From a virus, in IMG/VR virus record IMGVR_UViG_3300027905_000001, positions 15,362 to 79,361 of that record: a stretch of DNA of 64,000 bases. One strand, 5' to 3'. Under the pieces are notes generated by a model. That model was not told where the DNA came from. It was given only the letters and a program-made list of their open reading frames with translations, and searched no databases. Both the position numbers and the translations under genes were made by a program. Shown in pieces: positions 15,346 to 45,693 of this stretch (position 1 is its first letter; the number at the start of each line of letters is the position of its first letter).

Positions 15346-15858
15346 TTAAAAATCTCCATATAATTCAAGATAGTCTAAAACTACACCACCACACTGACAA
15401 ACAACATTAAATCCATCAAACTCGCTAATTGGTATACTCTTCCTTCCTCCTGAGAGTGCATCATTCCAAAACCGCATGAGCTCATCTAGTTCCAGCCTGT
15501 AGATTTTATACTTGGTTGTCATTTCGATGAGTAGGAAGGATGTTCCGCCTTGAGCCTGCCAATTCTTTAGAAATTCAATTTGATGTGGTTCGATGTTGGA
15601 TAAAGGGAATCGTTTTTGATCGTGGCATTGTTTGGCATCAAAGGCGACAGGTGCTCGTCCTTTTACTACTCCAATGTAATCTATTGTTGATTTTTCGCTT
15701 GGATAAGCTGACGTAACTTTTCCTTTTGACCAAATAACTTTCCAAGGAACCCAAACTTTTTGGATAAGAGCATCACCTTTGGCTTGGTATTGCTCGTTGG
15801 CATGTTCGATAAGTTGCTCTAGCCCCTTACCCCTATTAGCGTATAGCGTATTACTCAC
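15346..15858 (-). CDS. recU: Holliday-junction resolvase RecU
   Basis: ANRGKGLEQLIEHAN..., DYIGVVKG...FDAK, FPLSNIEPHQIEFL, GGRKSIP match RecU conserved blocks. Confidence 0.7.
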   Translation of the reverse strand: MSNTLYANRGKGLEQLIEHANEQYQAKGDALIQKVWVPWKVIWSKGKVTSAYPSEKSTIDYIGVVKGRAPVAFDAKQCHDQKRFPLSNIEPHQIEFLKNWQAQGGTSFLLIEMTTKYKIYRLELDELMRFWNDALSGGRKSIPISEFDGFNVVCQCGGVVLDYLELYGDF

Positions 15859-35493: not shown

Positions 35494-36333
35494 TCACTCA
35501 TTGGCTTTCACAAACCGTTCGCGCATATCGTCGATAAGTTTCAGATCGTTTTCGGTTAGTTGGGCATCATCAGGGACCTTCTCTGTCAACGCCTCCATAA
35601 CGCTCTCATTCCACCTAATCTGATAGCCGCTATGCCCATTCTTCACATAAGGGAATTCTTCGCCATAAGGTTTTCCAGCTTCCGTAATACGCCAATCCTT
35701 ATTGCCTTTGGCATCTACTTGTTGTTCCAGTAATCCTTTAGCGAGTAATGCCTTATTCGCATTGACCGCACTAATTCCAAGACGTTTACCAACTTCGGTA
35801 GGATTTAAGTATCCGGTTTCGTGTTCGGCAGCAGGGAGACATTTCGCAATATCCTGTAAATTTAGGCCGCTGTTTGTTTCTACTGCGCGAATACATGCGG
35901 CCTGGGCTATGCCGATACTTATACCTAGCTTTTCTTTGAGATATTCCGCTGTGTCAAATGCGTCTTTGATTGCTGGCCGGACGCGGGAAGATGTTCTCTT
36001 TTGCTTTGGCGCGGTTAACGTCTTCTCCATTTCCTCAAACTTGGTCACGTAAGTTGCTGTGAAGAGTACGCCCTTTTCGCCTGTCATTTTGTTGGCTACC
36101 ATGTCGCAGCCTTTGCGGGTTAGGAGGTAGCAGGGGCGGCTTTCGCCTTTGGCATCAATGTAAGTACTCGGGATGAAGAAATCTAACGAACGGAATTCTC
36201 CGTTGGTTAAGTGGGTTTCATACGTAGCGATCTTAGCGAGTAGGTCAGAATGCCTAACGTCTGTCATTTCGGCGGCATCCCGGCTGTCAATTACATAAAC
36301 CCCGTCTTGGTTGATAACTTGCAATTTGTTCAT
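35494..36333 (-). CDS. Phage antirepressor (Rha N-terminal domain plus Ant/KilAC-like C-terminus)
   Basis: VINQDGVYVIDSRDAAEMTDVRHSDLLAKI. Confidence 0.65.
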   Translation of the reverse strand: MNKLQVINQDGVYVIDSRDAAEMTDVRHSDLLAKIATYETHLTNGEFRSLDFFIPSTYIDAKGESRPCYLLTRKGCDMVANKMTGEKGVLFTATYVTKFEEMEKTLTAPKQKRTSSRVRPAIKDAFDTAEYLKEKLGISIGIAQAACIRAVETNSGLNLQDIAKCLPAAEHETGYLNPTEVGKRLGISAVNANKALLAKGLLEQQVDAKGNKDWRITEAGKPYGEEFPYVKNGHSGYQIRWNESVMEALTEKVPDDAQLTENDLKLIDDMRERFVKANE

Positions 36334-36336
36334 ATT

Positions 36337-37002
36337 TCACCCCCTCGCTAACCGCTTTTTGGCGATATTTGACTTTTTAATCAATAAGTCTCTAATTTGG
36401 TAGTAATCGAATCCAAGTTCATAAAGTACAGCAATCTTATGTGTTTGATTCTCAACAAGTTCCATTTCGCCAGAAGTCATAAAGTCGAGTGCGACAGCCT
36501 TTTTATCCGCTCCACGTTCCTTACGGATACTTGCGGCAATTTTACCAAGAGCCGCTTTGTAGGATAGGTCGATAAAAAGTTTGTAATCCCACTCGCTACG
36601 ATTTGGATTTTCCTTAATCCTATCTAGCAAAGGTTTGCGAGTTGGTTTGAGTGTCATTTTACCGATTTGGCGTTTTTGAAGTTCGGTTCGCATTTCGTAG
36701 AATTGGCGAACGAGTTCGGTTTTGAAATCAATTACAGTTTCGGTATTTCTCAGGAAGGTAACTAAGAGTGTTGCTTGCTCCTCGTTCAGGTGATAAACCT
36801 TTCTAATTTGCGTACCACCTTTTGTTTCAAAGGGTGTCATTTCAAATGATACCCTTCCGAACTTTTCGAGCCGTTGCTGATGCTTTTCAATCAATAGATA
36901 AACTGAACGGTTTGCAATTTTTGCATACTCAGCGATTACATCACTCGTTGTAAATGGTATAGCCTTGATAGAGTTCGGTTCAAGAAAAACTAAGTCACCC
37001 AT
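36337..37002 (-). CDS. Phage regulatory protein Rha family
   Basis: NSIKAIPFTTSDVIAEYAKIANRSVYLLIEKH. Confidence 0.65.
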   Translation of the reverse strand: MGDLVFLEPNSIKAIPFTTSDVIAEYAKIANRSVYLLIEKHQQRLEKFGRVSFEMTPFETKGGTQIRKVYHLNEEQATLLVTFLRNTETVIDFKTELVRQFYEMRTELQKRQIGKMTLKPTRKPLLDRIKENPNRSEWDYKLFIDLSYKAALGKIAASIRKERGADKKAVALDFMTSGEMELVENQTHKIAVLYELGFDYYQIRDLLIKKSNIAKKRLARG

Positions 37003-37292: not shown

Positions 37293-37308
37293 TAAGTAAT
37301 ATTAACGC
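37293..37308. promoter_or_regulatory. Operator-like motif, copy 2 (overlaps cro-like stop codon)
   Basis: gtaagtaatattaacg. Confidence 0.5.
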
Positions 37309-37544
37309 AATGCGTCCAACACCGCCTCGGATTGGGCTTCCATTTCTACGTCTGGGAACAACTCGTTAACTGGAGTATCAAACAAGAAAGATAGCTTCAG
37401 CATTAACTTGCCACTAGGCGTTGCGTTGCCGTTCTCAATATACCTTATCATGGTCCCAGTAACTCCGACGGCAGCGCCTACTTTATCCTGTGTGCCATAG
37501 GCTCTTCTTAGTTGTTTGAATCTTTCTCGTTTATGTCTTGTCAT
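37302..37544 (-). CDS. Cro-like HTH XRE-family regulator (first gene of leftward early operon)
   Basis: AYGTQDKVGAAVGVTGTMIRYIENG; divergent from CI-like gene. Confidence 0.6.
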   Translation of the reverse strand: MTRHKRERFKQLRRAYGTQDKVGAAVGVTGTMIRYIENGNATPSGKLMLKLSFLFDTPVNELFPDVEMEAQSEAVLDALR

Positions 37545-37582: not shown

Positions 37583-37598
37583 CGTAAATCATATTAAC
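37583..37598. promoter_or_regulatory. Operator-like motif, copy 3, in divergent promoter region
   Basis: gtaaatcatattaacg; -10-like TATACT at 37612-37617. Confidence 0.5.
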
Positions 37599-37645
37599 GC
37601 AATATGTAAATTATACTTTCTTTTATGGAAATGAGGAAAATATTT

Positions 37646-37984
37646 ATGATTATCGGTATGGGCAGTAGAATTAGAGTTCTTCGACTTGAACGAGGGTTAA
37701 CACAGGACCAAATGGCATATAAACTGGACATGAATCGTGCGAATTTCTCACATTACGAAAGAGACACATCTTCCCCACCGTGCGAAGTTCTGGTCAAAAT
37801 AGCTGATATTTTAAATACAACTACAGATTTCCTTCTTGGACGCACAGATACTAATCCACCCGATGCTGCAACAATCAAACAACTACAAGGAATTAATGAA
37901 TTACCGCAAGACAAGAGAAGATTTGTAATAAATATAATAAATTCGATTATTTCAGAAATAATCGAAGAGGCTAAGGAGGAATAG
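37646..37984 (+). CDS. CI-like HTH XRE-family repressor, coupled to integrase
   Basis: RBS GAGGAAAA; VLRLERGLTQDQMAYKLDMNRANFSHYERD; stop 3 nt before integrase ATG. Confidence 0.6.
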   Translation: MIIGMGSRIRVLRLERGLTQDQMAYKLDMNRANFSHYERDTSSPPCEVLVKIADILNTTTDFLLGRTDTNPPDAATIKQLQGINELPQDKRRFVINIINSIISEIIEEAKEE

Positions 37985-37986
37985 GT

Positions 37987-39465
37987 ATGCATGGAATACT
38001 ATACCTGCGCAAAAGCAGAGAAGATGAGCAATATGAAAAAAATACTGGCGAAGATGTTCTGCAAACCCATCGCGAACGTTTGGTTATGCTCTGTAAGTCG
38101 CGGGAAATTACCTTCGACGAACGCGCAGAGGTACGAAGCGGTGATACGATCGCAGGTCGGCCTAAATTTCAGAATATACTAGATACGGATCTCCCCTCTG
38201 GTCAATACTCTTGTATCATTGTTACTGAAATTTCTCGACTTGGCAGAGGGGACATGGAGGATGCAGGAAGAATATACAAAACCATAATCCACAACGAGAT
38301 TAAGATTGTCACGCCGAATAAAATATATGATCCGTTAAACCCTTCCGATCTTCGCCAGCTAAGGTTCGAGCTATTCATGTCTCGGGAGGAATACGAAAGC
38401 ATTAAGGAAAGACTATGGAATAATAGAAATTACCGGGCAACACAAGGTTATGCCGGCAATTATATTGTCACGCTCGGTTTTCGCCAGTCCAGGGGGATAG
38501 TCGAGATAATCCCCGAAGAGGAAAAATTAGTGCTTGAAATATTTACGATGCGCTCTGAAAATTACTCCTATCAAGAAATAGCGGATTACTTTAATTCCAG
38601 AAATTTAAAGACAAAACGCGGAACAAAGTATCATGAATCTACAATATATAAGATATTAAAAAATCCCAGGTATATAGGAGTGGCTAAGTGGCAAGGCAAG
38701 GAATATATAGCTAAGCACCCTGCGATAGTCTCATTGGACCTATGGAACTCTGCGCAGGATATCAACGCTGAAAGACATCACAAGAGACGAGGGTCAAAAA
38801 ACGATAACCCTTATCTAGTAGAGCTATACTGTCGAGAATGCGGGCAAAGGATGTACGGGGAACGCTCTACCCCGCAAAGGGTAATAGATGGTGTTCGAAA
38901 GCTATATAAAAGCAGAGACATCTATATTTGTAGGGGCAGAAAAAGCATCCCTAAATGTTGGCACCACATAGGAGCCAGCGTTGTTCACTCGACCATCCTT
39001 GATGAGCTTGGGAAGATAATATCAGATCCGCAGATTTTTCTTGAGTTAGTCAACGAGAGAGAATCAAGACTTGGCGTCGATACTAATGGTTTATCAGATC
39101 AAGTGGATGAATTAAATAAGCAAGTCAAGGATAAAAACATCCTTTTGGTAAAAATAGAGAACGATTATGAAAAAGGCGACCTATCCGCTTTGCTATATAC
39201 TAAACACGTTGAAAAAATATCCAAAGAAATAGCATCTATTGAAGGTAGGATAAAAAAAATTAAGGCCGATTTATTAAAATCAGCCATTAAGATTAGTCCT
39301 CCTATGGAATTACAATCAATTTTGAAAACATTCCTAAATAACTGGAACGCCTATCCTAATAGTGACAAGAAGCTCATCATTAGATCATTTCTTCCCAGGG
39401 TTGAGGTGAACAAGCAGGGTGAATTCTTTATCGCTATTACTTTGCCTGATTCTATCGAAATTTAG
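37987..39465 (+). CDS. Large serine recombinase (phage integrase, serine type)
   Basis: N-terminal resolvase-type catalytic domain (YLRKSREDE), recombinase domain, Cys-rich zinc ribbon, C-terminal coiled coil; 492 aa. Confidence 0.8.
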   Translation: MHGILYLRKSREDEQYEKNTGEDVLQTHRERLVMLCKSREITFDERAEVRSGDTIAGRPKFQNILDTDLPSGQYSCIIVTEISRLGRGDMEDAGRIYKTIIHNEIKIVTPNKIYDPLNPSDLRQLRFELFMSREEYESIKERLWNNRNYRATQGYAGNYIVTLGFRQSRGIVEIIPEEEKLVLEIFTMRSENYSYQEIADYFNSRNLKTKRGTKYHESTIYKILKNPRYIGVAKWQGKEYIAKHPAIVSLDLWNSAQDINAERHHKRRGSKNDNPYLVELYCRECGQRMYGERSTPQRVIDGVRKLYKSRDIYICRGRKSIPKCWHHIGASVVHSTILDELGKIISDPQIFLELVNERESRLGVDTNGLSDQVDELNKQVKDKNILLVKIENDYEKGDLSALLYTKHVEKISKEIASIEGRIKKIKADLLKSAIKISPPMELQSILKTFLNNWNAYPNSDKKLIIRSFLPRVEVNKQGEFFIAITLPDSIEI

Positions 39466-39515
39466 CAAACGGGAAACCTTCCGACAATTTCAAAATAGGG
39501 AAGGTTTCCCGTTTG
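39466..39515 (+). terminator. 17-bp perfect inverted repeat after integrase stop (terminator or att-site candidate)
   Basis: caaacgggaaaccttcc / ggaaggtttcccgtttg around a 16-nt loop. Confidence 0.5.
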
Positions 39516-39520
39516 CGGTT

Positions 39521-39784: not shown

Positions 39785-40194
39785 GATAATATCAAGTATT
39801 TTTTCAGTCGGAATATTTTTTTCAATATCTATATCCTCATCTCCTGCCTGAATTTATGTTTTACCAGTCTCTATATACTAGAACGTGTGTTCTTAATTTT
39901 CAAGGGGTAATTTGTCGCAAAAGAAATAAATCGTTTCTCTTCCCCTTTCTCTCGCTACCCGTAGGAACAAAGTCCTACAATCAGTCCTAGATATAATTCA
40001 GAATATTTATTTAAGTTATTGACAGTATACGCTATAACGTTTGTCGAAATCGCGTGAAATAAAGGAGGCCAAATGTGAATATTTTGTGATTATAAATTAT
40101 ACTTAAGTCTACATATTATAATACCTGCTACATTTTTGTGTTAGCAGGATTAATCCTATCCTCTGTGGAAGTATTTTCCTATGGTGGTGAGGCG

Positions 40195-40416
40195 ATGGAT
40201 TTAGAAGATAAGTTAAAGGATAACAAAATACAATACATACTAGACAAGCGTGATATGTCGCAAAAAGACCTTGCCGCAACGCTCGGGTGGTGGCCGAGTG
40301 ACATAAGCGACATCGTTAACGGTAAGGTTAAGCGCCTTACGCTCATTCGCGCTTCGATGATATCCGTTGCTCTCGGGTATTCGGTTGAGTATATTTGGCC
40401 TACTTTATTCAAGTAG
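40195..40416 (+). CDS. HTH XRE-like regulator
   Basis: ATG after GGTGGTGAGG; MSQKDLAATLGWWPSDISDIVNGK. Confidence 0.5.
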   Translation: MDLEDKLKDNKIQYILDKRDMSQKDLAATLGWWPSDISDIVNGKVKRLTLIRASMISVALGYSVEYIWPTLFK

Positions 40417-40431
40417 GCCAAATATTTTTTT
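40396..40431 (+). terminator. Rho-independent terminator overlapping gene 3' end
   Basis: 9-bp stem tggcctact/agtaggcca then T-run. Confidence 0.65.
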
Positions 40432-40553: not shown

Positions 40554-40760
40554 GTGAAGAAAAGAAGAACTTTTTGGGACGGAGATGATCTTTGCTCAAA
40601 GCTAGACGCAATACCAGAAAATGAACTAAGTACCATAATCCGCATGGCACTACGAGCATGGTTTAAGATCGACAGCAAGCCCGAACTAACCGTTACCGAC
40701 GCAAGGCAGATAGCGCAGGAGCTGGTAAGGCAACGCAAAGTTGAAAGGAGCGAACGCTAA
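40554..40760 (+). CDS. Ribbon-helix-helix-like small protein
   Basis: GTG start after GAGAGGTGAG; RRTFWDGDDL...STIIRMALRAWF. Confidence 0.4.
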   Translation: MKKRRTFWDGDDLCSKLDAIPENELSTIIRMALRAWFKIDSKPELTVTDARQIAQELVRQRKVERSER

Positions 40761-40938: not shown

Positions 40939-41166
40939 ATGGACATAACTAAAATCCAAAAAATCGTTCGCAAGGCTATCAAGGACTACGCCATTACCGC
41001 AAAGTACGATGAGGAAATTCTAGTATCATTTCTCAGCGTGGATATTTTCCGGGAGATCAACGAGGATTCCCCGGCACCTCTCTCGGATCCCAAGGCTCCC
41101 CCTCGCCGCAATACTAACCAGAATGCATTAGGTCTGGTAAATCACGAAGCAGGTGAAACGCCATGA
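40939..41166 (+). CDS. Hypothetical small protein
   Basis: ATG after GTGAGG. Confidence 0.4.
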   Translation: MDITKIQKIVRKAIKDYAITAKYDEEILVSFLSVDIFREINEDSPAPLSDPKAPPRRNTNQNALGLVNHEAGETP

Positions 41167-42491
41167 GTGAAAAATCATCGTCCGTAAAGCCCGACCTGAT
41201 CGGCTTGACATCCTCTACTCTGGTCAAACTTGGACGCTTTGCCCTACGTCATATCGGCAGTCCCAACAACTCCTATGCGAACAAGATAATGCTGAACTGG
41301 AAACGCAATGACATATGCACCGAAACCAAAGAGCGAGGCAAGGATTACACAGAGAAGAAATACCCTACGCTAGTGGAAAAGACAATGAAGGGTCATAATC
41401 GAGTACTTAGATACAAGATACCCACCGGTCTAAATCCGCAGAAAGTCATGAAATCCCTCTACGACATCGAGTTCGATCTCAAGTCAGAAGTCCTATTCAA
41501 GCGACTTGAGAACGATCCCAAAGCGCACTTCTCACTCACTATCTTATCCGGCAAACTGTTAGACATTATCAACTACTCCAACGAGGCCAGTATTACTCCA
41601 GATGGCAAGGAGTTAAGCAAAGGTCTATGGATACCTCTAGGGTGGTCAAGAAGGGGCTTGGAACAACTTAATTTAGCCTCTAGCAACAGCCCTCATCTTA
41701 TGATCGGAGGGGCTACAGGAGGCGGCAAGAGCATCCTTGGCAGGCTTATCCTTGCTACCCTCCATATCCGCTATAACCGTGATGAATGCCGACTATGGCT
41801 CTGTGACCTTAAACATGGCAACGGCACAGCAAGGCTAGGGAAAAACCCTCTCCTTGTAGATAGGACTATTTCTGATCCGGGCGAAGCAGAACAAATGATG
41901 GACGATCTCTCTGTGATTATTGGCGAGCGATATAATTTATTTAAGGAGTATGAGTGCGACGATTTACAGGCGTTTAACGAGGAATATCCAAGATTGAGAT
42001 TGCCGCGCATTGTGGTTTATGTGGATGAATTAACCAAACTTGAGGGCAAGGAGTTCTCCAGGGCTCGTGAAAAGATGACTAAAGTCACGGGGGAATCCAG
42101 GGGTGCAGGAGTGCATGTTATTATCTCTTGTCACAGGCCCACAGCTAACCTTGTGTCCGGCACGATGAAGAACAATATCTCTGCCGTTGTCGCGTTTAAT
42201 TGCAACGCTGTATCGGCTCGTGTGTTGCTTGGAGAAGATCCGGAGGATTACAAGGCAGCCAGCATGATTGATCCAGATATCGAAGGTCGAGCATTGTTTA
42301 AATTTAAAGATGAGGTATTGCTGCAGGTCCCCTACATCGACAACCATGCAATCAAGTCCCTTATGGCCAACTATCAAAAAGCGATAATTAAAGGTAAGGT
42401 CGAGCCAGTGATACAGGCTGTTATTTCCACTAGGGTGGTTGAGCACTCAGTCGGGCACTCACTCGGTCATACTATTGAGCACCCCCAGTGA
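41163..42491 (+). CDS. FtsK/SpoIIIE-family DNA translocase-like ATPase
   Basis: Walker A GGATGGGKS, Walker B VVYVDE. Confidence 0.75.
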   Translation: MSEKSSSVKPDLIGLTSSTLVKLGRFALRHIGSPNNSYANKIMLNWKRNDICTETKERGKDYTEKKYPTLVEKTMKGHNRVLRYKIPTGLNPQKVMKSLYDIEFDLKSEVLFKRLENDPKAHFSLTILSGKLLDIINYSNEASITPDGKELSKGLWIPLGWSRRGLEQLNLASSNSPHLMIGGATGGGKSILGRLILATLHIRYNRDECRLWLCDLKHGNGTARLGKNPLLVDRTISDPGEAEQMMDDLSVIIGERYNLFKEYECDDLQAFNEEYPRLRLPRIVVYVDELTKLEGKEFSRAREKMTKVTGESRGAGVHVIISCHRPTANLVSGTMKNNISAVVAFNCNAVSARVLLGEDPEDYKAASMIDPDIEGRALFKFKDEVLLQVPYIDNHAIKSLMANYQKAIIKGKVEPVIQAVISTRVVEHSVGHSLGHTIEHPQ

Positions 42492-42614
42492 TTGTACTCA
42501 ACGATTCAATGCGCTTTATAGGCTCCTTTGGTCATGCCGTGCGGTCCGTAAAGTGCTTTATTATCCTTACTTTTTTATTTTGTATTTATTTTATATTTTT
42601 GCGAGGTGAAAATT

Positions 42615-43244
42615 GTGAACTTAGTGGCATATGGCAAGCAACGAGACGAACGAATTATGGGGCTAGTAGGGCTTGGGACAGCCTTTACGCGAAGCCAAAT
42701 AGAGCGAGTTATATTTAAGGGAAGTAAGCGTAAGGCTCAGACTAGACTGCAGGTGCTATCCGATTCAGGGCGACTAAAAAAGATTATCCGCAGTCCCCAC
42801 GAACCAGCCATCTATTGCCTCAAAAAACCCCGAAATATCGATCATTATTTACTTATCAATGAAATCTATTGTGCCGTAATGTCTCAGAAAAAGTCTTGGC
42901 ATATCGTCAAGTGGCAATGGTCATATCCAATTATGGAAGGTAAGATTTGGGCAGACGCAATGGTTGATATTTACGACCAACTCAATAAGCGTAGGCATGT
43001 TATATTTGTTGAGGTTGAGCGTTACGCAGACCGTAAGTTCGAGAAGGATAAAAAGTATTCAGCCATTACCAGCGCGAACTGGACGAAAGAAGAGTGGGCG
43101 ATTAAGGAGCCTACAAGGATATTGTTCCCGGCAATCCTAGTTGTCACCGAATGCAAATTAGAGGTCAAAAGCGAGTTGGATTTCTTTGTTGCCACGATGG
43201 ACCAAGTCAAAAAAGACATTTACTCTATTATCTTAAGGAGGTAA
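42615..43244 (+). CDS. Replication-relaxation family protein (putative)
   Basis: GTG after GAGGTGA; N-terminal winged-helix-like segment; assignment from memory. Confidence 0.4.
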   Translation: MNLVAYGKQRDERIMGLVGLGTAFTRSQIERVIFKGSKRKAQTRLQVLSDSGRLKKIIRSPHEPAIYCLKKPRNIDHYLLINEIYCAVMSQKKSWHIVKWQWSYPIMEGKIWADAMVDIYDQLNKRRHVIFVEVERYADRKFEKDKKYSAITSANWTKEEWAIKEPTRILFPAILVVTECKLEVKSELDFFVATMDQVKKDIYSIILRR

Positions 43245-43248
43245 CACC

Positions 43249-43467
43249 ATGGGTAAACTAGGAAAAGTGACCACAAAGGCCACCTATGGAATCCTGAATC
43301 TGGCGATGAAACCTATTTACGATCAGATGAAAAAAGAGAGAAAAGAAGAAGTTAAAAGATGGAACAAATCGCTAGATATAGCTTCTCAGGATGCAATGGC
43401 CGAGGCTAGATATTTTGAAGTAAGGCAGCCGTTTGATTCGATTATCCACAAGCACCCATTGTGGTAG
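43249..43467 (+). CDS. Hypothetical small protein
   Basis: Track ORF. Confidence 0.4.
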   Translation: MGKLGKVTTKATYGILNLAMKPIYDQMKKERKEEVKRWNKSLDIASQDAMAEARYFEVRQPFDSIIHKHPLW

Positions 43468-43490
43468 TAATGACAATAGTAATGACTTTT

Positions 43491-43570
43491 AGCCCCTTCG
43501 TAAACCGAGGGGCTATTTTAATGCCCTGACATAACGAAACCCCAGCATTTGCCGGGGGTTAGTTTTTATT
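43491..43570 (+). terminator. Two tandem hairpin terminators
   Basis: agccccttcg...cgaggggct + ATTTTAAT; aaccccagc...gccgggggtt + AGTTTTTATT. Confidence 0.55.
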
Positions 43571-43645
43571 CTCTATTATTTATGGCTATTCGGATTATAT
43601 GGTGGAAAATGAGTTTGGAATTTCCAGTTTTATAATAAATAATTA

Positions 43646-43700
43646 CTACTATTATAGCGTTATCGCTTGACAAATTATAGCGATAACGCTATAATAGTAG
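43646..43700. promoter_or_regulatory. Perfect 22-bp inverted repeat enclosing a consensus promoter (TTGACA-17-TATAAT)
   Basis: ctactattatagcgttatcgct (43646-43667) is the exact reverse complement of 43679-43700; -35 at 43667-43672, -10 at 43690-43695. Confidence 0.75.
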
Positions 43701-43763
43701 TAACAGCTAAAGATTACATGAACCCGACAGCCCATAAGGGGCGGGGCGAGAGGAGAATATAAA

Positions 43764-44624
43764 ATGGCAAATGAAGTCGTCAAGGAATACTACAAATGGG
43801 ATGAAACAGGTGAAGCTTTTGGCATAAGTATAAGCTACGATGCCGGAGATGACTGTGGTCCAGTTGCTGGGCTTAAACTAAGTGGTGGACAACCAAAAGA
43901 AGTCAACGGTCAAAATGTCGTTTGGTTCGAAAAAACAACCAAAGGTCAGCCCGTCGCCATAAAGTATAACAGCCGTCCCGATTTAGCAGCCCTTGTGAAC
44001 GAGTATAAAAAGTTTCAGGCTGAGCAACAAACAAGGCATAATACCCGGGCTGCTGCACATCAAGCCGAGCGGGAAGCCATAGACAACCCTCTACTTGAGG
44101 ACATGGAAGCAGAAGCTGTTGAATTGCGGAAAAAGATTCCGACCGGGCATATCGAGGTTGATGTCGAGGATAATGGCAATCTTGACGGCTATCCTAATTT
44201 AAAATACTCAGTAAACGGCGTTGAATTGCCTTGGGATAAGGTCAACCATATTGGCACTGCGAGTGCGATTCGCCCAGGCGCATTAGGTTCTTTTGCTCAA
44301 ATTTATGTCGTATCTATCGCCAAGGATCAAATCGAACAAATCAAAAAAGAGCAGGAAGAGAAATCGGCAATCAACCAAGCTAAAAAAGAGGCTTACCAAA
44401 GAGAATTAACTGGGACTATAATCCCTCCGGCGGCCTTAGAGGCTTACAACTATTACCACGGTGACGCAGAACTAGCATGGGAAAAAGAAGATGAATCCTC
44501 TTGGGCTCTTATTGAACGATGGACCACTTATATCGAGGCACAACATGGGATTGCCCCTCGTAAATTACAGCACATGGTTTCGGAATCCGCGCGCGAAGAG
44601 AATTATGGGATCAATGAGGGTTAG
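43764..44624 (+). CDS. Hypothetical protein (286 aa) under the palindromic operator
   Basis: RBS GAGAGGAG; track ORF. Confidence 0.5.
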   Translation: MANEVVKEYYKWDETGEAFGISISYDAGDDCGPVAGLKLSGGQPKEVNGQNVVWFEKTTKGQPVAIKYNSRPDLAALVNEYKKFQAEQQTRHNTRAAAHQAEREAIDNPLLEDMEAEAVELRKKIPTGHIEVDVEDNGNLDGYPNLKYSVNGVELPWDKVNHIGTASAIRPGALGSFAQIYVVSIAKDQIEQIKKEQEEKSAINQAKKEAYQRELTGTIIPPAALEAYNYYHGDAELAWEKEDESSWALIERWTTYIEAQHGIAPRKLQHMVSESAREENYGINEG

Positions 44625-44645
44625 TGGAGAGAGTGTTTGAAAAAA

Positions 44646-44680
44646 GAAAGAGCCGTAATCAATCGGCTCTTTCTGGATAA
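44646..44680 (+). terminator. Rho-independent terminator
   Basis: gaaagagccg / cggctctttc stem then T-rich. Confidence 0.6.
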
Positions 44681-44784
44681 CTTTTTATTTCAATCCACGC
44701 CTTACGGCGACAATCCTTGATGGGATTTATTACCCATAATATAATCCAAATAGCAGTATATGTCAAGACTAAGGAGGGCATTTC

Positions 44785-45492
44785 GTGAAAAAGAAACATC
44801 GGTCTATTTCGCAGATACTTGATAGATCGAAATCTGCCGAATCAAGAAGAGCTATCACTATAAATTGGTCAAAGTCATGGGAAAATGAGACCATGGAACT
44901 CATACGTAACCTTGAACAGGCTGTAAGGGCCATGGATTACGATCAGCTATGCATTAATACCAGGCAGCTTAAGGCGGTTACTCAAAAACGTTTTGGAGCC
45001 CTGCCAAATATATTTATGCACCTCACTAAGGCTGGTGCCGCAGAGAAAAACCCGGAAAAAGAACCCGAACCATTAGCCAATGCAGCTGTACAAGATATAC
45101 ACAAAAAGCAGGATGTCCCAAAAGAACCAGATGAGCCGAGCCATGCGGAGGAGCAGCATGTGCCCGGAATCTGCATAGACTGTGGTGTCAGTTTTAATGC
45201 TAAAACCAGCCGCCAAAAGCGGTGCCCCGAGTGCCAAGTTGAACACAACAAGGCGTTACGGTTAGCCGCGGCCAAGGCAACTCAAGATGTCAAAAGAGAT
45301 AGGCCTCTTTTGGATATCATGGAGGGATACATTACGGTAAAAGAATGGGCGAGCAAGCACGGTAAGAGTCCGTCCAGCGCTCAGAATATATTGTCCAATT
45401 CCCCTACTCTTGTACCAGCTGCCAGAAAGGTGCGCAATCCTCGCGGCGGCGTGGATATCTGGGTCGTACCAAAAGAGACAATATGGCCTTAA
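44785..45492 (+). CDS. Hypothetical protein with C-terminal zinc ribbon
   Basis: GTG start after AAGGAGGG; CIDCG...CPEC. Confidence 0.45.
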   Translation: MKKKHRSISQILDRSKSAESRRAITINWSKSWENETMELIRNLEQAVRAMDYDQLCINTRQLKAVTQKRFGALPNIFMHLTKAGAAEKNPEKEPEPLANAAVQDIHKKQDVPKEPDEPSHAEEQHVPGICIDCGVSFNAKTSRQKRCPECQVEHNKALRLAAAKATQDVKRDRPLLDIMEGYITVKEWASKHGKSPSSAQNILSNSPTLVPAARKVRNPRGGVDIWVVPKETIWP

Positions 45493-45513
45493 TAAAATAA
45501 AGGAATGATAGCG

Positions 45514-45693
45514 ATGGAACTTAAAGACGTACTAACAGGTCCCGAAGCTGCGCAACTTTGGAGCATTGGAGAGTCAACAGTCCGCAATGCAGCTGCGGCG
45601 GGTAAATTCAACGAAGACGAAGCTCGAAGGGCAGGGAAAAACTGGCTAATCACCAGAGAAGGCATGAAAAGAGTATTTGGTGATCCTAACTAA
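45514..45693 (+). CDS. Small HTH DNA-binding protein (excisionase-like)
   Basis: LTGPEAAQLWSIGESTVRNAAAAGKF...WLITREGMKRVFG. Confidence 0.45.
   Translation: MELKDVLTGPEAAQLWSIGESTVRNAAAAGKFNEDEARRAGKNWLITREGMKRVFGDPN

Follow-up and report, generated by a model that had tools for sequence, protein, structure and literature searches.

A probable paired-dyad operator over a consensus promoter and its predicted HTH_59 regulator in a temperate-phage-like element

The DNA considered here is a stretch of 64,000 nucleotides from a virus (IMG/VR record IMGVR_UViG_3300027905_000001, positions 15,362 to 79,361), referred to below as the window. Between 37.3 and 45.7 kb it carries a plus-strand block with genes for a CI-like helix-turn-helix (HTH) protein, a large serine recombinase, an HTH_3 protein, an FtsK/SpoIIIE-like ATPase and a Replic_Relax protein, with an HTH_3 gene on the minus strand. 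The Replic_Relax gene is followed, in this order, by two terminator-like hairpins, a long palindrome with an embedded promoter, a gene for a 286-residue protein, a hairpin, a gene for a 235-residue protein and a gene for a 62-residue protein of the HTH_59 family (Table 1). The palindrome with its promoter, the genes that travel with them in related loci, and the probable role of the HTH_59 protein as their cognate repressor are the subject of this analysis.

The palindrome, its promoter and its dyads

The palindrome had been described in the original prediction as a perfect 22-bp repeat around an 11-nt centre, completely enclosing a consensus promoter. It is indeed perfect and its centre does measure 11 nt, but a repeat search shows that the arms (TTACTACTATTATAGCGTTATCGCT and AGCGATAACGCTATAATAGTAGTAA) extend three bases further on each side, to 25 nt each with 100 % complementarity. 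The centre itself, TGACAAATTAT, is asymmetric, and the sequence of 43640-43705 reads ttactactattatAGCGTTATCGCTtgacaaattatAGCGATAACGCTataatagtagtaa. The two promoter hexamers inside the palindrome, their 17-nt spacer and the start of the 286-residue open reading frame (ORF) downstream had been read correctly. This TTGACA-17-TATAAT promoter is the sole 12/12 match among the 27 promoter-like sites scanned in 36-48 kb. A chance origin of the palindrome is excluded, the longest perfect inverted repeat (loop of at most 20) in 20 first-order Markov resamples of the window being 8-13 nt long, against the 25 nt observed. Folded as single-stranded DNA (ssDNA), the palindrome reaches -25.2 kcal/mol (z = -9.6).

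A substructure of the palindrome had been overlooked. Each arm contains a dyad of its own, AGCG-N4-CGCT, and these are the only two exact occurrences of this motif in the whole window. The left-hand dyad (core of operator O1) has its final base in common with the start of the -35 hexamer, in a register that is kept in the window and in the related loci L023, L012, L030, L003, L033 and L052. The right-hand dyad (operator O2) occupies the promoter spacer and the first 4 nt of the -10 hexamer, and the two dyads lie 23 bp apart, centre to centre. From the usual distance between -10 and +1, transcription is predicted to start near 43702, at the end of the right arm. Since this predicted start sits at the 3' edge of the palindrome, the latter would lie outside the mRNA of its own promoter. 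No T-run follows position 43703, and the terminator scan made no call at the palindrome. The missing T-run and a predicted start at the 3' end of the stem thus argue that the palindrome is neither an RNA hairpin nor a terminator. An Rfam search of 43400-44900 (E-value mode) returned only miRNA-precursor hairpin matches, at 22-30 bits against gathering scores of 57-100.

Table 1. Features of the palindrome region (window coordinates)
Feature	Position	Strand	Remarks
Intrinsic terminator, stem-loop and T-run	43490..43515	+	terminator scan
Second terminator-like hairpin	43540..43557	-	terminator scan
Palindrome	43643..43703		arms 43643-43667 and 43679-43703
Operator O1	43653..43670		TATAGCG-TTAT-CGCTTGA; core AGCG-N4-CGCT 43656-43667, final core base is -35 base 1
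-35 hexamer TTGACA	43667-43672	+
Operator O2	43676..43693		perfect 7-4-7 dyad TATAGCG-ATAA-CGCTATA; core 43679-43690
-10 hexamer TATAAT	43690-43695	+
5'-leader hairpin AACCCGACAGCC-N7-GGCGGGG	43721..43746	+	stems invariant, loop variable
Shine-Dalgarno sequence GAGGAG	43750-43755		3' of leader hairpin
Cargo gene, 286 residues	43764..44624	+	starts with ATG; orphan family, 38 homologs
Hairpin, 11-bp stem, 3' of cargo gene	44645..44674		terminator on minus strand, weak on plus
Secondary promoter-like site TTGATG-17-TATAAT	44717..44745	+	ahead of 235-residue gene
235-residue protein	44785..45492	+	weak Cys4 zinc-ribbon signal
HTH_59 (PF20038) small winged-helix protein	45505..45693	+	62 residues; proposed cognate repressor

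Conservation of the putative operator and of its partner gene

Relatives of this cassette were gathered from the DNA around homologs of the 286-residue protein, by DNA pattern searches, and then from homologs of the 62-residue protein. The unit conserved among them (Table 2) is a pair of 12-18-bp dyads of the TATAGCG-N4-CGCTATA type, 21-23 bp apart and in fixed register to the promoter. Site 1 of the full cassettes runs as far as -35 base 1, and site 2 stops within the -10 or shortly before it; L029 differs by a 2-nt gap between site 1 and the -35. The -35 is TTGACA in eight of the nine AGCG-type cassettes. The inner 4 nt of both dyads of L003 are altered in a compensatory way, from TTAT/ATAA to CATA/TATG. 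Because L033 and L052, which have no hairpin potential, keep everything else, it is the pair of dyads that is conserved and not the hairpin. This pattern of conservation argues that the operator is under selection as one unit with its promoter.

Table 2. The two dyads in the window and in related loci
Locus	Left dyad / right dyad	Start-to-start spacing	Perfect arms (nt)	Remarks
Window	AGCGTTATCGCT / AGCGATAACGCT	23	25
L023	as in window	23	20
L012	as in window	23	15
L030/L031	as in window	23	15	-35 TTTACA
L003	AGCGCATACGCT / AGCGTATGCGCT	23	14
L033	AGCGATAACGCT / AGCGATATCGCT	23	4	dyads not mirrored
L052	AGCGATAACGCT / GGCGATAACGCT	22	none	dyads in direct orientation
L029	AGCGTTACAGCT / AGCGGAAACGCT	21	none
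L001	AGCGTTATCGCT / degenerate	n/a	1	1-nt deletion in right site, -10 lost

The extra symmetry of the window comes from its left side, where the outer flank (43643-43652) mirrors the right-hand -10 to +1 region, ATAATAGTATTAACAGC. All relatives conserve this right-hand region, whereas no two of them resemble each other in the left flank. The 25-nt perfection thus appears to be a lineage-specific extension, proper to the window; it probably came from secondary homogenisation, or from additional symmetric contacts, and not from the core functional unit.

Co-conservation was analysed by an all-against-all ORF comparison of the cassette loci and by tblastn of every island protein against all of them, several of the cassette-bearing contigs being short. 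HTH_59 emerges as the single constant and exclusive partner: its homologs lie 3' of the cassette and on the same strand in all cassette loci except the degenerate L001. This locus, of which 16.8 kb were examined, is the only one without an HTH_59 gene, and damage to operator and -10 is likewise confined to it. What lies between operator and HTH_59 varies: a cargo of the 286-residue family in the window, L023 and L003, a protein of 69 residues in L012, 79 in L030 and 112 in L033. The cargo of L052 comprises a 79-residue protein, an AcrIC5-family protein (PF22147, 51.1 bits against a cutoff of 27) and a protein of 153 residues. L029 has no cargo, its operator-promoter being directly 5' of the HTH_59 gene. 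L023, L012, L030, L033 and L052 clearly have HTH_59 behind the cargo as a same-strand member of one operon, and L029 shows this arrangement without cargo. When close HTH_59 homologs were found by the protein alone, an operator was present upstream in four out of five (L029, L030, L033 and L052). Precomputed matches also place an AcrVA2-like annotation near L003 and L025, which a Pfam scan did not reproduce.

The regulators that had been put forward as candidates in the original prediction do not show such a linkage. Homologs of the HTH protein at 40195-40416 and of the CI-like protein at 37646-37984 were found by tblastn in just one other cassette contig, the syntenic IMG/VR phage contig L028, which contains L012. 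The protein at 40554-40760, then called a ribbon-helix-helix protein, is without homologs in the cassette loci and matches no family significantly.

The HTH_59 protein of the window matches PF20038 with 71.4 bits (cutoff 27, E = 6e-20), with a weaker HTH_17 signal, and its homologs score 47-71 bits. Its true start is likely the ATG at 45514, which gives 59 residues, as in the NCBI model. The literature on HTH_59 is essentially empty, and the protein has no sequence relative in the PDB, including the solved structures of anti-CRISPR-associated (Aca) proteins. The AlphaFold2 (AF2) model (mean per-residue confidence pLDDT 85.8) displays a beta-helix-helix-hairpin wing-helix topology. The top Foldseek matches are BldC, in first place, Pukovnik Xis, Tn916 Xis, TraN and MerR N-terminal domains, with probabilities of 0.99-1.0 and template-modelling (TM) scores of 0.6-0.7. 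Pukovnik Xis (4j2n) is matched with a probability of 1.00 and a TM score of 0.63-0.71, and Tn916 Xis (1y6u), lambda Xis (1rh6) and RdfS (8dgl) are also retrieved. The E-values are weak (~0.05) because the domain is small. The model thus predicts a winged helix of the Xis/BldC/MerR type.

More distant relatives of HTH_59, at 30-51 % identity, were retrieved by tblastn against annotated phages and plasmids; they belong to Geobacillus, Parageobacillus, Aeribacillus and Lactobacillus phages and to Bacillus and Clostridium plasmids. An operator is seen at two of the three such loci examined. In Clostridium botulinum pCBH (L055), ATCACGATAACGTGAAA is followed by 13 nt that include TTTACA, then by TTTCACGTTATCGTGAT and ATAAT. 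Two CACG-N4-CGTG dyads thus form a mirror pair that is perfect over 17 nt, at a distance of 31 bp and with the same CGATAACG core. The -35 TTTACA lies between the dyads, TATAAT abuts the right one, and the last gene of the operon downstream encodes a protein whose C-terminus is an HTH_59 domain. In L056, a Bacillus tropicus plasmid, a 7-4-7 dyad, TGTCTTG-CAAA-CAAGACA, covers the -35 (TTGCAA), with TATAAT 17 nt downstream of the -35, directly 5' of a stand-alone HTH_59 gene. When the protein alignment is set beside the operators, HTH_59 proteins with ESTVRNAAAAGKF...RRAGKNWLITR all pair with AGCG...CGCT dyads, and an altered recognition helix or wing (L003, L055, L056, L032) goes with altered or absent dyads. 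In these comparisons the operator sequence tracks the residues of the HTH_59 recognition helix and wing. The dyad spacings of 21, 22, 23 and 31 bp amount to about two or three helical turns and would thus fit cooperative binding on one face of the DNA.

Pattern searches on a larger scale were less productive. The strict operator pattern gave no match in the JGI metagenomes. The leader pattern gave 10 matches in metagenomes, nine of them by chance in GC-rich coding sequence and one (L018) being the contig of L001. The bare double-dyad pattern gave 19 matches in IMG/VR, 18 of them falling in unrelated iterons or in GC-rich sequence, without a nearby HTH_59 gene. An IMG/VR contig of 70 % GC (L048, 421-455) carries AGCGCGTGCGCT-tgacagtgtct-AGCGCCGGCGCT-atggt, with the same double-dyad geometry and a TTGACA that spans the end of the first dyad; tblastn finds no HTH_59 homolog there, and this double dyad may be a coincidence or a convergent design.

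Candidate regulation and alternative explanations

Taken together, these data lead us to favour, with moderate confidence, the view that the palindrome is a composite operator, O1 plus O2, laid over the consensus sigma-70/sigma-A promoter of an insulated and autorepressed operon of the acr-aca kind, with HTH_59 as the binder. When the DNA of the element enters a cell without the regulator, the consensus promoter would fire strongly and the cargo, here the 286-residue protein, would be made at once. HTH_59 would accumulate afterwards and occupy O1 and O2 cooperatively, probably with two subunits per dyad and four in total. The bound protein would then block the sigma contacts at -35 and -10 and cover the spacer, so that the unit would be shut down. 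The tightly repressed promoter with a dimeric regulator that had been proposed for this palindrome survives in part: in about ten loci, the promoter bears symmetry elements at positions from which a bound protein would keep RNA polymerase out. A single dimer on one 22-bp palindrome does not, since the conserved unit consists of two separate dyads, which points to four subunits, and the long palindrome is lineage-specific and absent in L033 and L052.

Autorepression of anti-CRISPR (Acr) operons by acr-aca circuits was reportedly described by Stanley in 2019. Such operons are autorepressed by Aca1-Aca14 (PMC6765145, PMC9410906, PMC13551039). Their promoters are of a consensus, constitutive type and carry one or two inverted repeats in the core promoter, where the co-encoded Aca represses them (PMC9410906; PMC13551039). 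The cassette looks alike in several respects: a consensus promoter with inverted repeats inside the core promoter, kept in relatives; small, variable and mostly orphan cargo, followed on the same strand by a gene for a small DNA-binding protein; a location in accessory regions of prophages and mobile genetic elements, with an AcrIC5-family gene in the sibling locus L052; and, in part of the family, a hairpin in the 5' untranslated region that is reminiscent of the Aca2/Aca1 RNA motifs. In contrast, the window has no validated Acr, its 286-residue cargo exceeds most Acrs in size, and HTH_59 may be transcribed there from a promoter of its own. The regulator is also of another kind, an Xis/BldC/MerR-like winged helix outside the Aca1-14 families. 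For Aca1-12, the table (aca3-aca12) gives Pfam matches to HTH_3, KORA, YdaS_antitoxin, HTH_29, HTH_31 and HTH_26, the text adds HTH_24 and DUF1870, and none of the matches given there is HTH_17 or HTH_59 (PMC9765179). Aca14 is a ribbon-helix-helix protein (PMC13551039). The bulk predictions of AcaFinder do include two HTH_59 (PF20038) candidate Acas, from Staphylococcus epidermidis and Bacillus thuringiensis, and many HTH_17 candidates (PMC9765179). These are unvalidated entries without operator, promoter or family analysis in the parts of the paper that present them, where neither the Desulfosporosinus/Clostridia clade nor the operator is described.

Other comparisons can be made at the level of the fold and of the locus. 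The Apl protein of coliphage 186 is one of the small Xis-like winged-helix regulators. Small single-domain winged HTH proteins of the MerR/Xis type have been described as cooperative promoter-covering repressors or autoregulators, namely BldC of Streptomyces (PMC5859096), gp1 of the tectivirus GIL01 (PMC11511902) and Gp36 of the mycobacteriophage D29 (PMC12266134). Like HTH_59, BldC, gp1, Gp36 and Apl are 58-68-residue single winged-helix domains without an effector domain; they bind repeated sites over promoters cooperatively, and the phage genes are repressed or autoregulated. HTH_59 has no detectable sequence similarity to these four proteins. Their sites are direct repeats in head-to-tail arrangement, from which they can spread into filaments, whereas 7-4-7 dyads, usually as a mirror pair, are found here. 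The cassette also resembles phage morons, with its upstream terminator, its own strong promoter, the hairpin after the cargo gene, and a slot between the lysogeny and lysis modules whose content varies between syntenic phages (the window and L028). Classical morons, in contrast, are not defined by a dedicated autorepressor and operator that travel along.

Several points weigh against the preferred interpretation. The number of independent cassette lineages is small, about 10, and binding and repression by HTH_59 at O1 and O2 are deduced from comparisons throughout. HTH_59 in the window is on the cargo strand but 1.8 kb downstream of the operator, and because the hairpin 44645-44674 and a second promoter-like site intervene, it may not be co-transcribed with the cargo; it may have its own promoter at 44717-44745, and regulation could still act in trans. 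No comparable operator is seen at L032, which has a close HTH_59 homolog, nor at the HTH_59 locus of Geobacillus virus E2 (L054). None of the known anti-defence proteins resembles the 286-residue cargo. Characterised winged HTH proteins of the Xis/BldC type usually bind direct repeats head to tail, not dyads. Finally, a model of two independent dimers does not account for N4 centres that mirror each other in most loci, L003 with its compensatory changes included, nor for arms that are perfect over 14-25 nt in several lineages and over 17-25 nt in three of them. This mirror symmetry could come from a symmetric dimer of dimers or from gene conversion between the arms.

A more ambitious version of the composite-operator interpretation is possible, and we consider it rather doubtful. 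HTH_59 would then be a new family of anti-defence-associated regulators in phages, plasmids and integrative elements of Clostridia and Bacilli, acting as a symmetric tetramer on mirrored 7-4-7 dyads; it would guard new anti-defence proteins (the 286-, 69-, 79- and 112-residue cargo), with the leader hairpin as a second, RNA-level target as for Aca2/Aca1. A symmetric tetramer on a mirror pair would account for the compensatory upkeep of 14-25-nt palindromes.

Among the alternatives, repression by another regulator of the element (the CI-like protein 37625-37984, the HTH_3 proteins 40138-40416 and 37302-37544, or ORF 40554-40760) or by a host factor, HTH_59 being unrelated, is suggested by the several HTH genes within 6 kb and by the homologs of the CI-like and 40138 HTH_3 proteins on the cassette-bearing contig L028. 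We regard it as unlikely: those proteins have no homologs in cassette loci beyond L028, several of these contigs being short, whereas HTH_59 is missing from L001 alone, the CI/Cro-type pair owns a distinct motif (ATATTAACGCAAT), ORF 40554-40760 matches no family significantly, and a host factor would leave the covariation of operator and HTH_59 sequence unexplained. The palindrome could also act as a DNA structure, either as an ssDNA hairpin (serving as promoter or origin on the single strand, or as oriT for the FtsK/Replic_Relax module) or as a supercoil-driven cruciform that switches the promoter off. Its perfect 25-nt arms and stable ssDNA fold, the FtsK/SpoIIIE and Replic_Relax genes immediately upstream, the compensatory symmetry in L003 and the recurrence of 17-nt perfect arms in C. 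botulinum pCBH fit such a role. This is nevertheless quite improbable, as the unmirrored dyads of L033 and L052 leave a hairpin of at most 4 bp, yet position and promoter are conserved, and the length of the arms ranges from 14 to 25 nt. Single-strand promoters of the Frpo type have both hexamers in the hairpin stem, whereas the -35 would sit in the loop here. An oriT is linked to a relaxase and a nic site, and the cassette occurs in loci without nearby transfer/replication, relaxase or FtsK genes, such as the lysogeny/lysis junction of L028 and L030, beside tail genes.

The fold of HTH_59 raises two further questions. Its top structural matches include excisionases (Pukovnik, Tn916 and lambda Xis, RdfS), the winged-helix Xis fold being recognised in the model; it has a weak HTH_17 match, its gene lies within an integrase-containing module, and the homolog of Geobacillus E2 is annotated as "excisionase" at NCBI. 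HTH_59 could then be primarily an excisionase or recombination directionality factor for which the dyads are architectural sites, or have a dual role as Apl and RdfS do, without an Aca-like circuit. The sites are however placed exactly on a consensus promoter and not beside an att core, 4.2 kb from the integrase gene. From locus to locus the integrase changes, being of the serine type in the window and of the tyrosine type in L028, with three tyrosine recombinases in L030, and yet HTH_59 and the operator stay. HTH_59 is also found on plasmids and in the short acr-like operon of L052, where the available DNA contains no integrase; a primary role in excision is thus improbable. Kinship with MerR N-terminal domains, and a dyad in the -35/-10 spacer like MerR operators, would suggest instead an activator that remodels the promoter from its spacer. 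MerR-type promoters have over-long spacers of 19-20 bp and need activation. Here both hexamers are consensus and the spacer has the optimal 17 bp, which makes MerR-style activation very unlikely; moreover, HTH_59 is a single domain of 59-62 residues without an effector or coiled-coil domain, and the second dyad covers the edge of the -35.

Some other readings of the palindrome were discarded. An ssoA-type single-strand origin was considered for its CS-6 motif (TAGCGT/A), as both arms contain TAGCG; with no conserved hairpin, and with a -35 that would fall within the loop, it was dropped. A telomere-resolution (tel) site was rejected on account of a non-palindromic centre and the absence of a protelomerase, and an integron attC or serine-recombinase attP site in view of the fixed register that the element keeps to a promoter and a leader ahead of different genes.

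The regulatory logic put forward here is already known; what is new is an operator-promoter-regulator triplet for an uncharacterised Pfam domain, which probably guards anti-defence cargo. If HTH_59 is truly Aca-like, its combination with an easily recognised operator (two N4-spaced dyads on a consensus promoter) would provide a search handle, and guilt by association could reveal anti-defence genes in anaerobic Firmicutes (Desulfosporosinus, Clostridium, the Bacillus cereus group, Geobacillus phages). To our knowledge, few Acrs and no dedicated Aca families have been described in those lineages. HTH_59 would also represent a third structural class of Aca, an Xis/MerR-like winged helix beside the HTH and ribbon-helix-helix classes, and the 286-residue protein of unknown fold would be nominated as a candidate counter-defence factor. 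Should the unit be merely an ordinary autoregulated accessory operon, it would still provide a clean and well-delimited operator-promoter-regulator triplet for HTH_59.

Cargo, leader and element context

The cassette is predicted to be insulated from upstream transcription by the first of the two hairpins that precede it, and a GC-rich hairpin with a T-run is likewise found directly 5' of the cassette in L012, L033 and L052. Downstream of the promoter, the leader hairpin is found in the window, L023, L012, L003 and L001, ahead of two different cargo genes. It is not present in L030, L033, L029 and L052, and it corresponds to no Rfam family. Its stems are invariant, so that covariation is uninformative for or against an RNA structure. 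By analogy with Aca2/Aca1, one may speculate that this hairpin is a target at the RNA level.

The window derives from Candidatus Desulfosporosinus infrequens, whose SBF1_50105 is 100 % identical to the 286-residue cargo. Only 38 homologs of this cargo were found among ~5.8 billion protein clusters. The protein has no match in Pfam, PHROG or NCBIfam, and its AF2 model is confident, yet without a structural relative. A megablast search with 43000-45500 gave no match in 50,697 phage records, and a scan of the genome collection with the cargo protein gave one distant and uninformative match, in Luteolibacter. At two loci with distant homologs of this protein, L025 (~400-520) and L027 (~430-540), no palindrome is seen; they have another leader in common, GTCCCGAGGTTGCC...GGTAAAATTCCG...CTCAACGCTTATAGACTTTAT, which is possibly a structured RNA.

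The 235-residue protein accompanies the 286-residue cargo (L001, L003), not the operator. A second Xis-like winged HTH domain, suspected by eye at its C-terminus, was abandoned after hhalign (probability 1 %) and for lack of Pfam support. Between the cargo gene and the 235-residue gene, a minus-strand promoter-like site (44766-44738, TTGACA-17-TATATT, 11/12) overlaps by its -10 that of the plus-strand site 44717-44745. Together with the strong minus-strand terminator at 44674-44645, it would give a minus-strand RNA of ~60-90 nt, lying between these two genes.

To the left of the plus-strand block, two tandem genes of the Rha family of phage regulators (279 and 221 residues, 35494-37002) occupy the minus strand; to its right, this strand encodes holin, endolysin and tail proteins. 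The order in L028 is Rha, CI-like protein, tyrosine integrase, Cro-like HTH protein, terminator, cassette, 69-residue gene and HTH_59, the cassette unit being convergent with endolysin and holin. The gene orders of the window and of L028 thus show the cassette in the accessory ("moron") position of a temperate-phage-like element, flanked by its lysogeny and lysis modules. The unit is therefore an insulated, moron-like operon and not simply part of a CI-type lysogeny switch. A switch of the CI/Cro type probably has its own operators, unrelated to the palindrome: an exact 13-nt repeat, ATATTAACGCAAT, is found at 37299-37311 and 37591-37603, flanking the divergent HTH genes 37302-37544 (-) and 37625-37984 (+). 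Only this exact pair is notable, the count at 2 mismatches being at chance level.

The FtsK/SpoIIIE-like (442 residues) and Replic_Relax (212 residues) genes lie at 41163-43244, within the lysogeny/accessory block. As both are missing in the syntenic L028, where the integrase is of the tyrosine and not of the serine type, they suggest that the element contains an insert of the plasmid-like or mobilisable kind, or that it lives as a phage-plasmid. An 18-nt perfect inverted repeat (39465-39516, GCAAACGGGAAACCTTCC / GGAAGGTTTCCCGTTTGC, with a 16-nt centre) starts right at the stop codon of the gene for the large serine recombinase and is followed by GGTTTTAT; this repeat could be the terminator of the integrase gene or an attP-like site. 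A 15-nt perfect inverted repeat with a T-run at 40391-40425 overlaps the end of the HTH_3 gene 40138-40416 and forms a strong intrinsic terminator.

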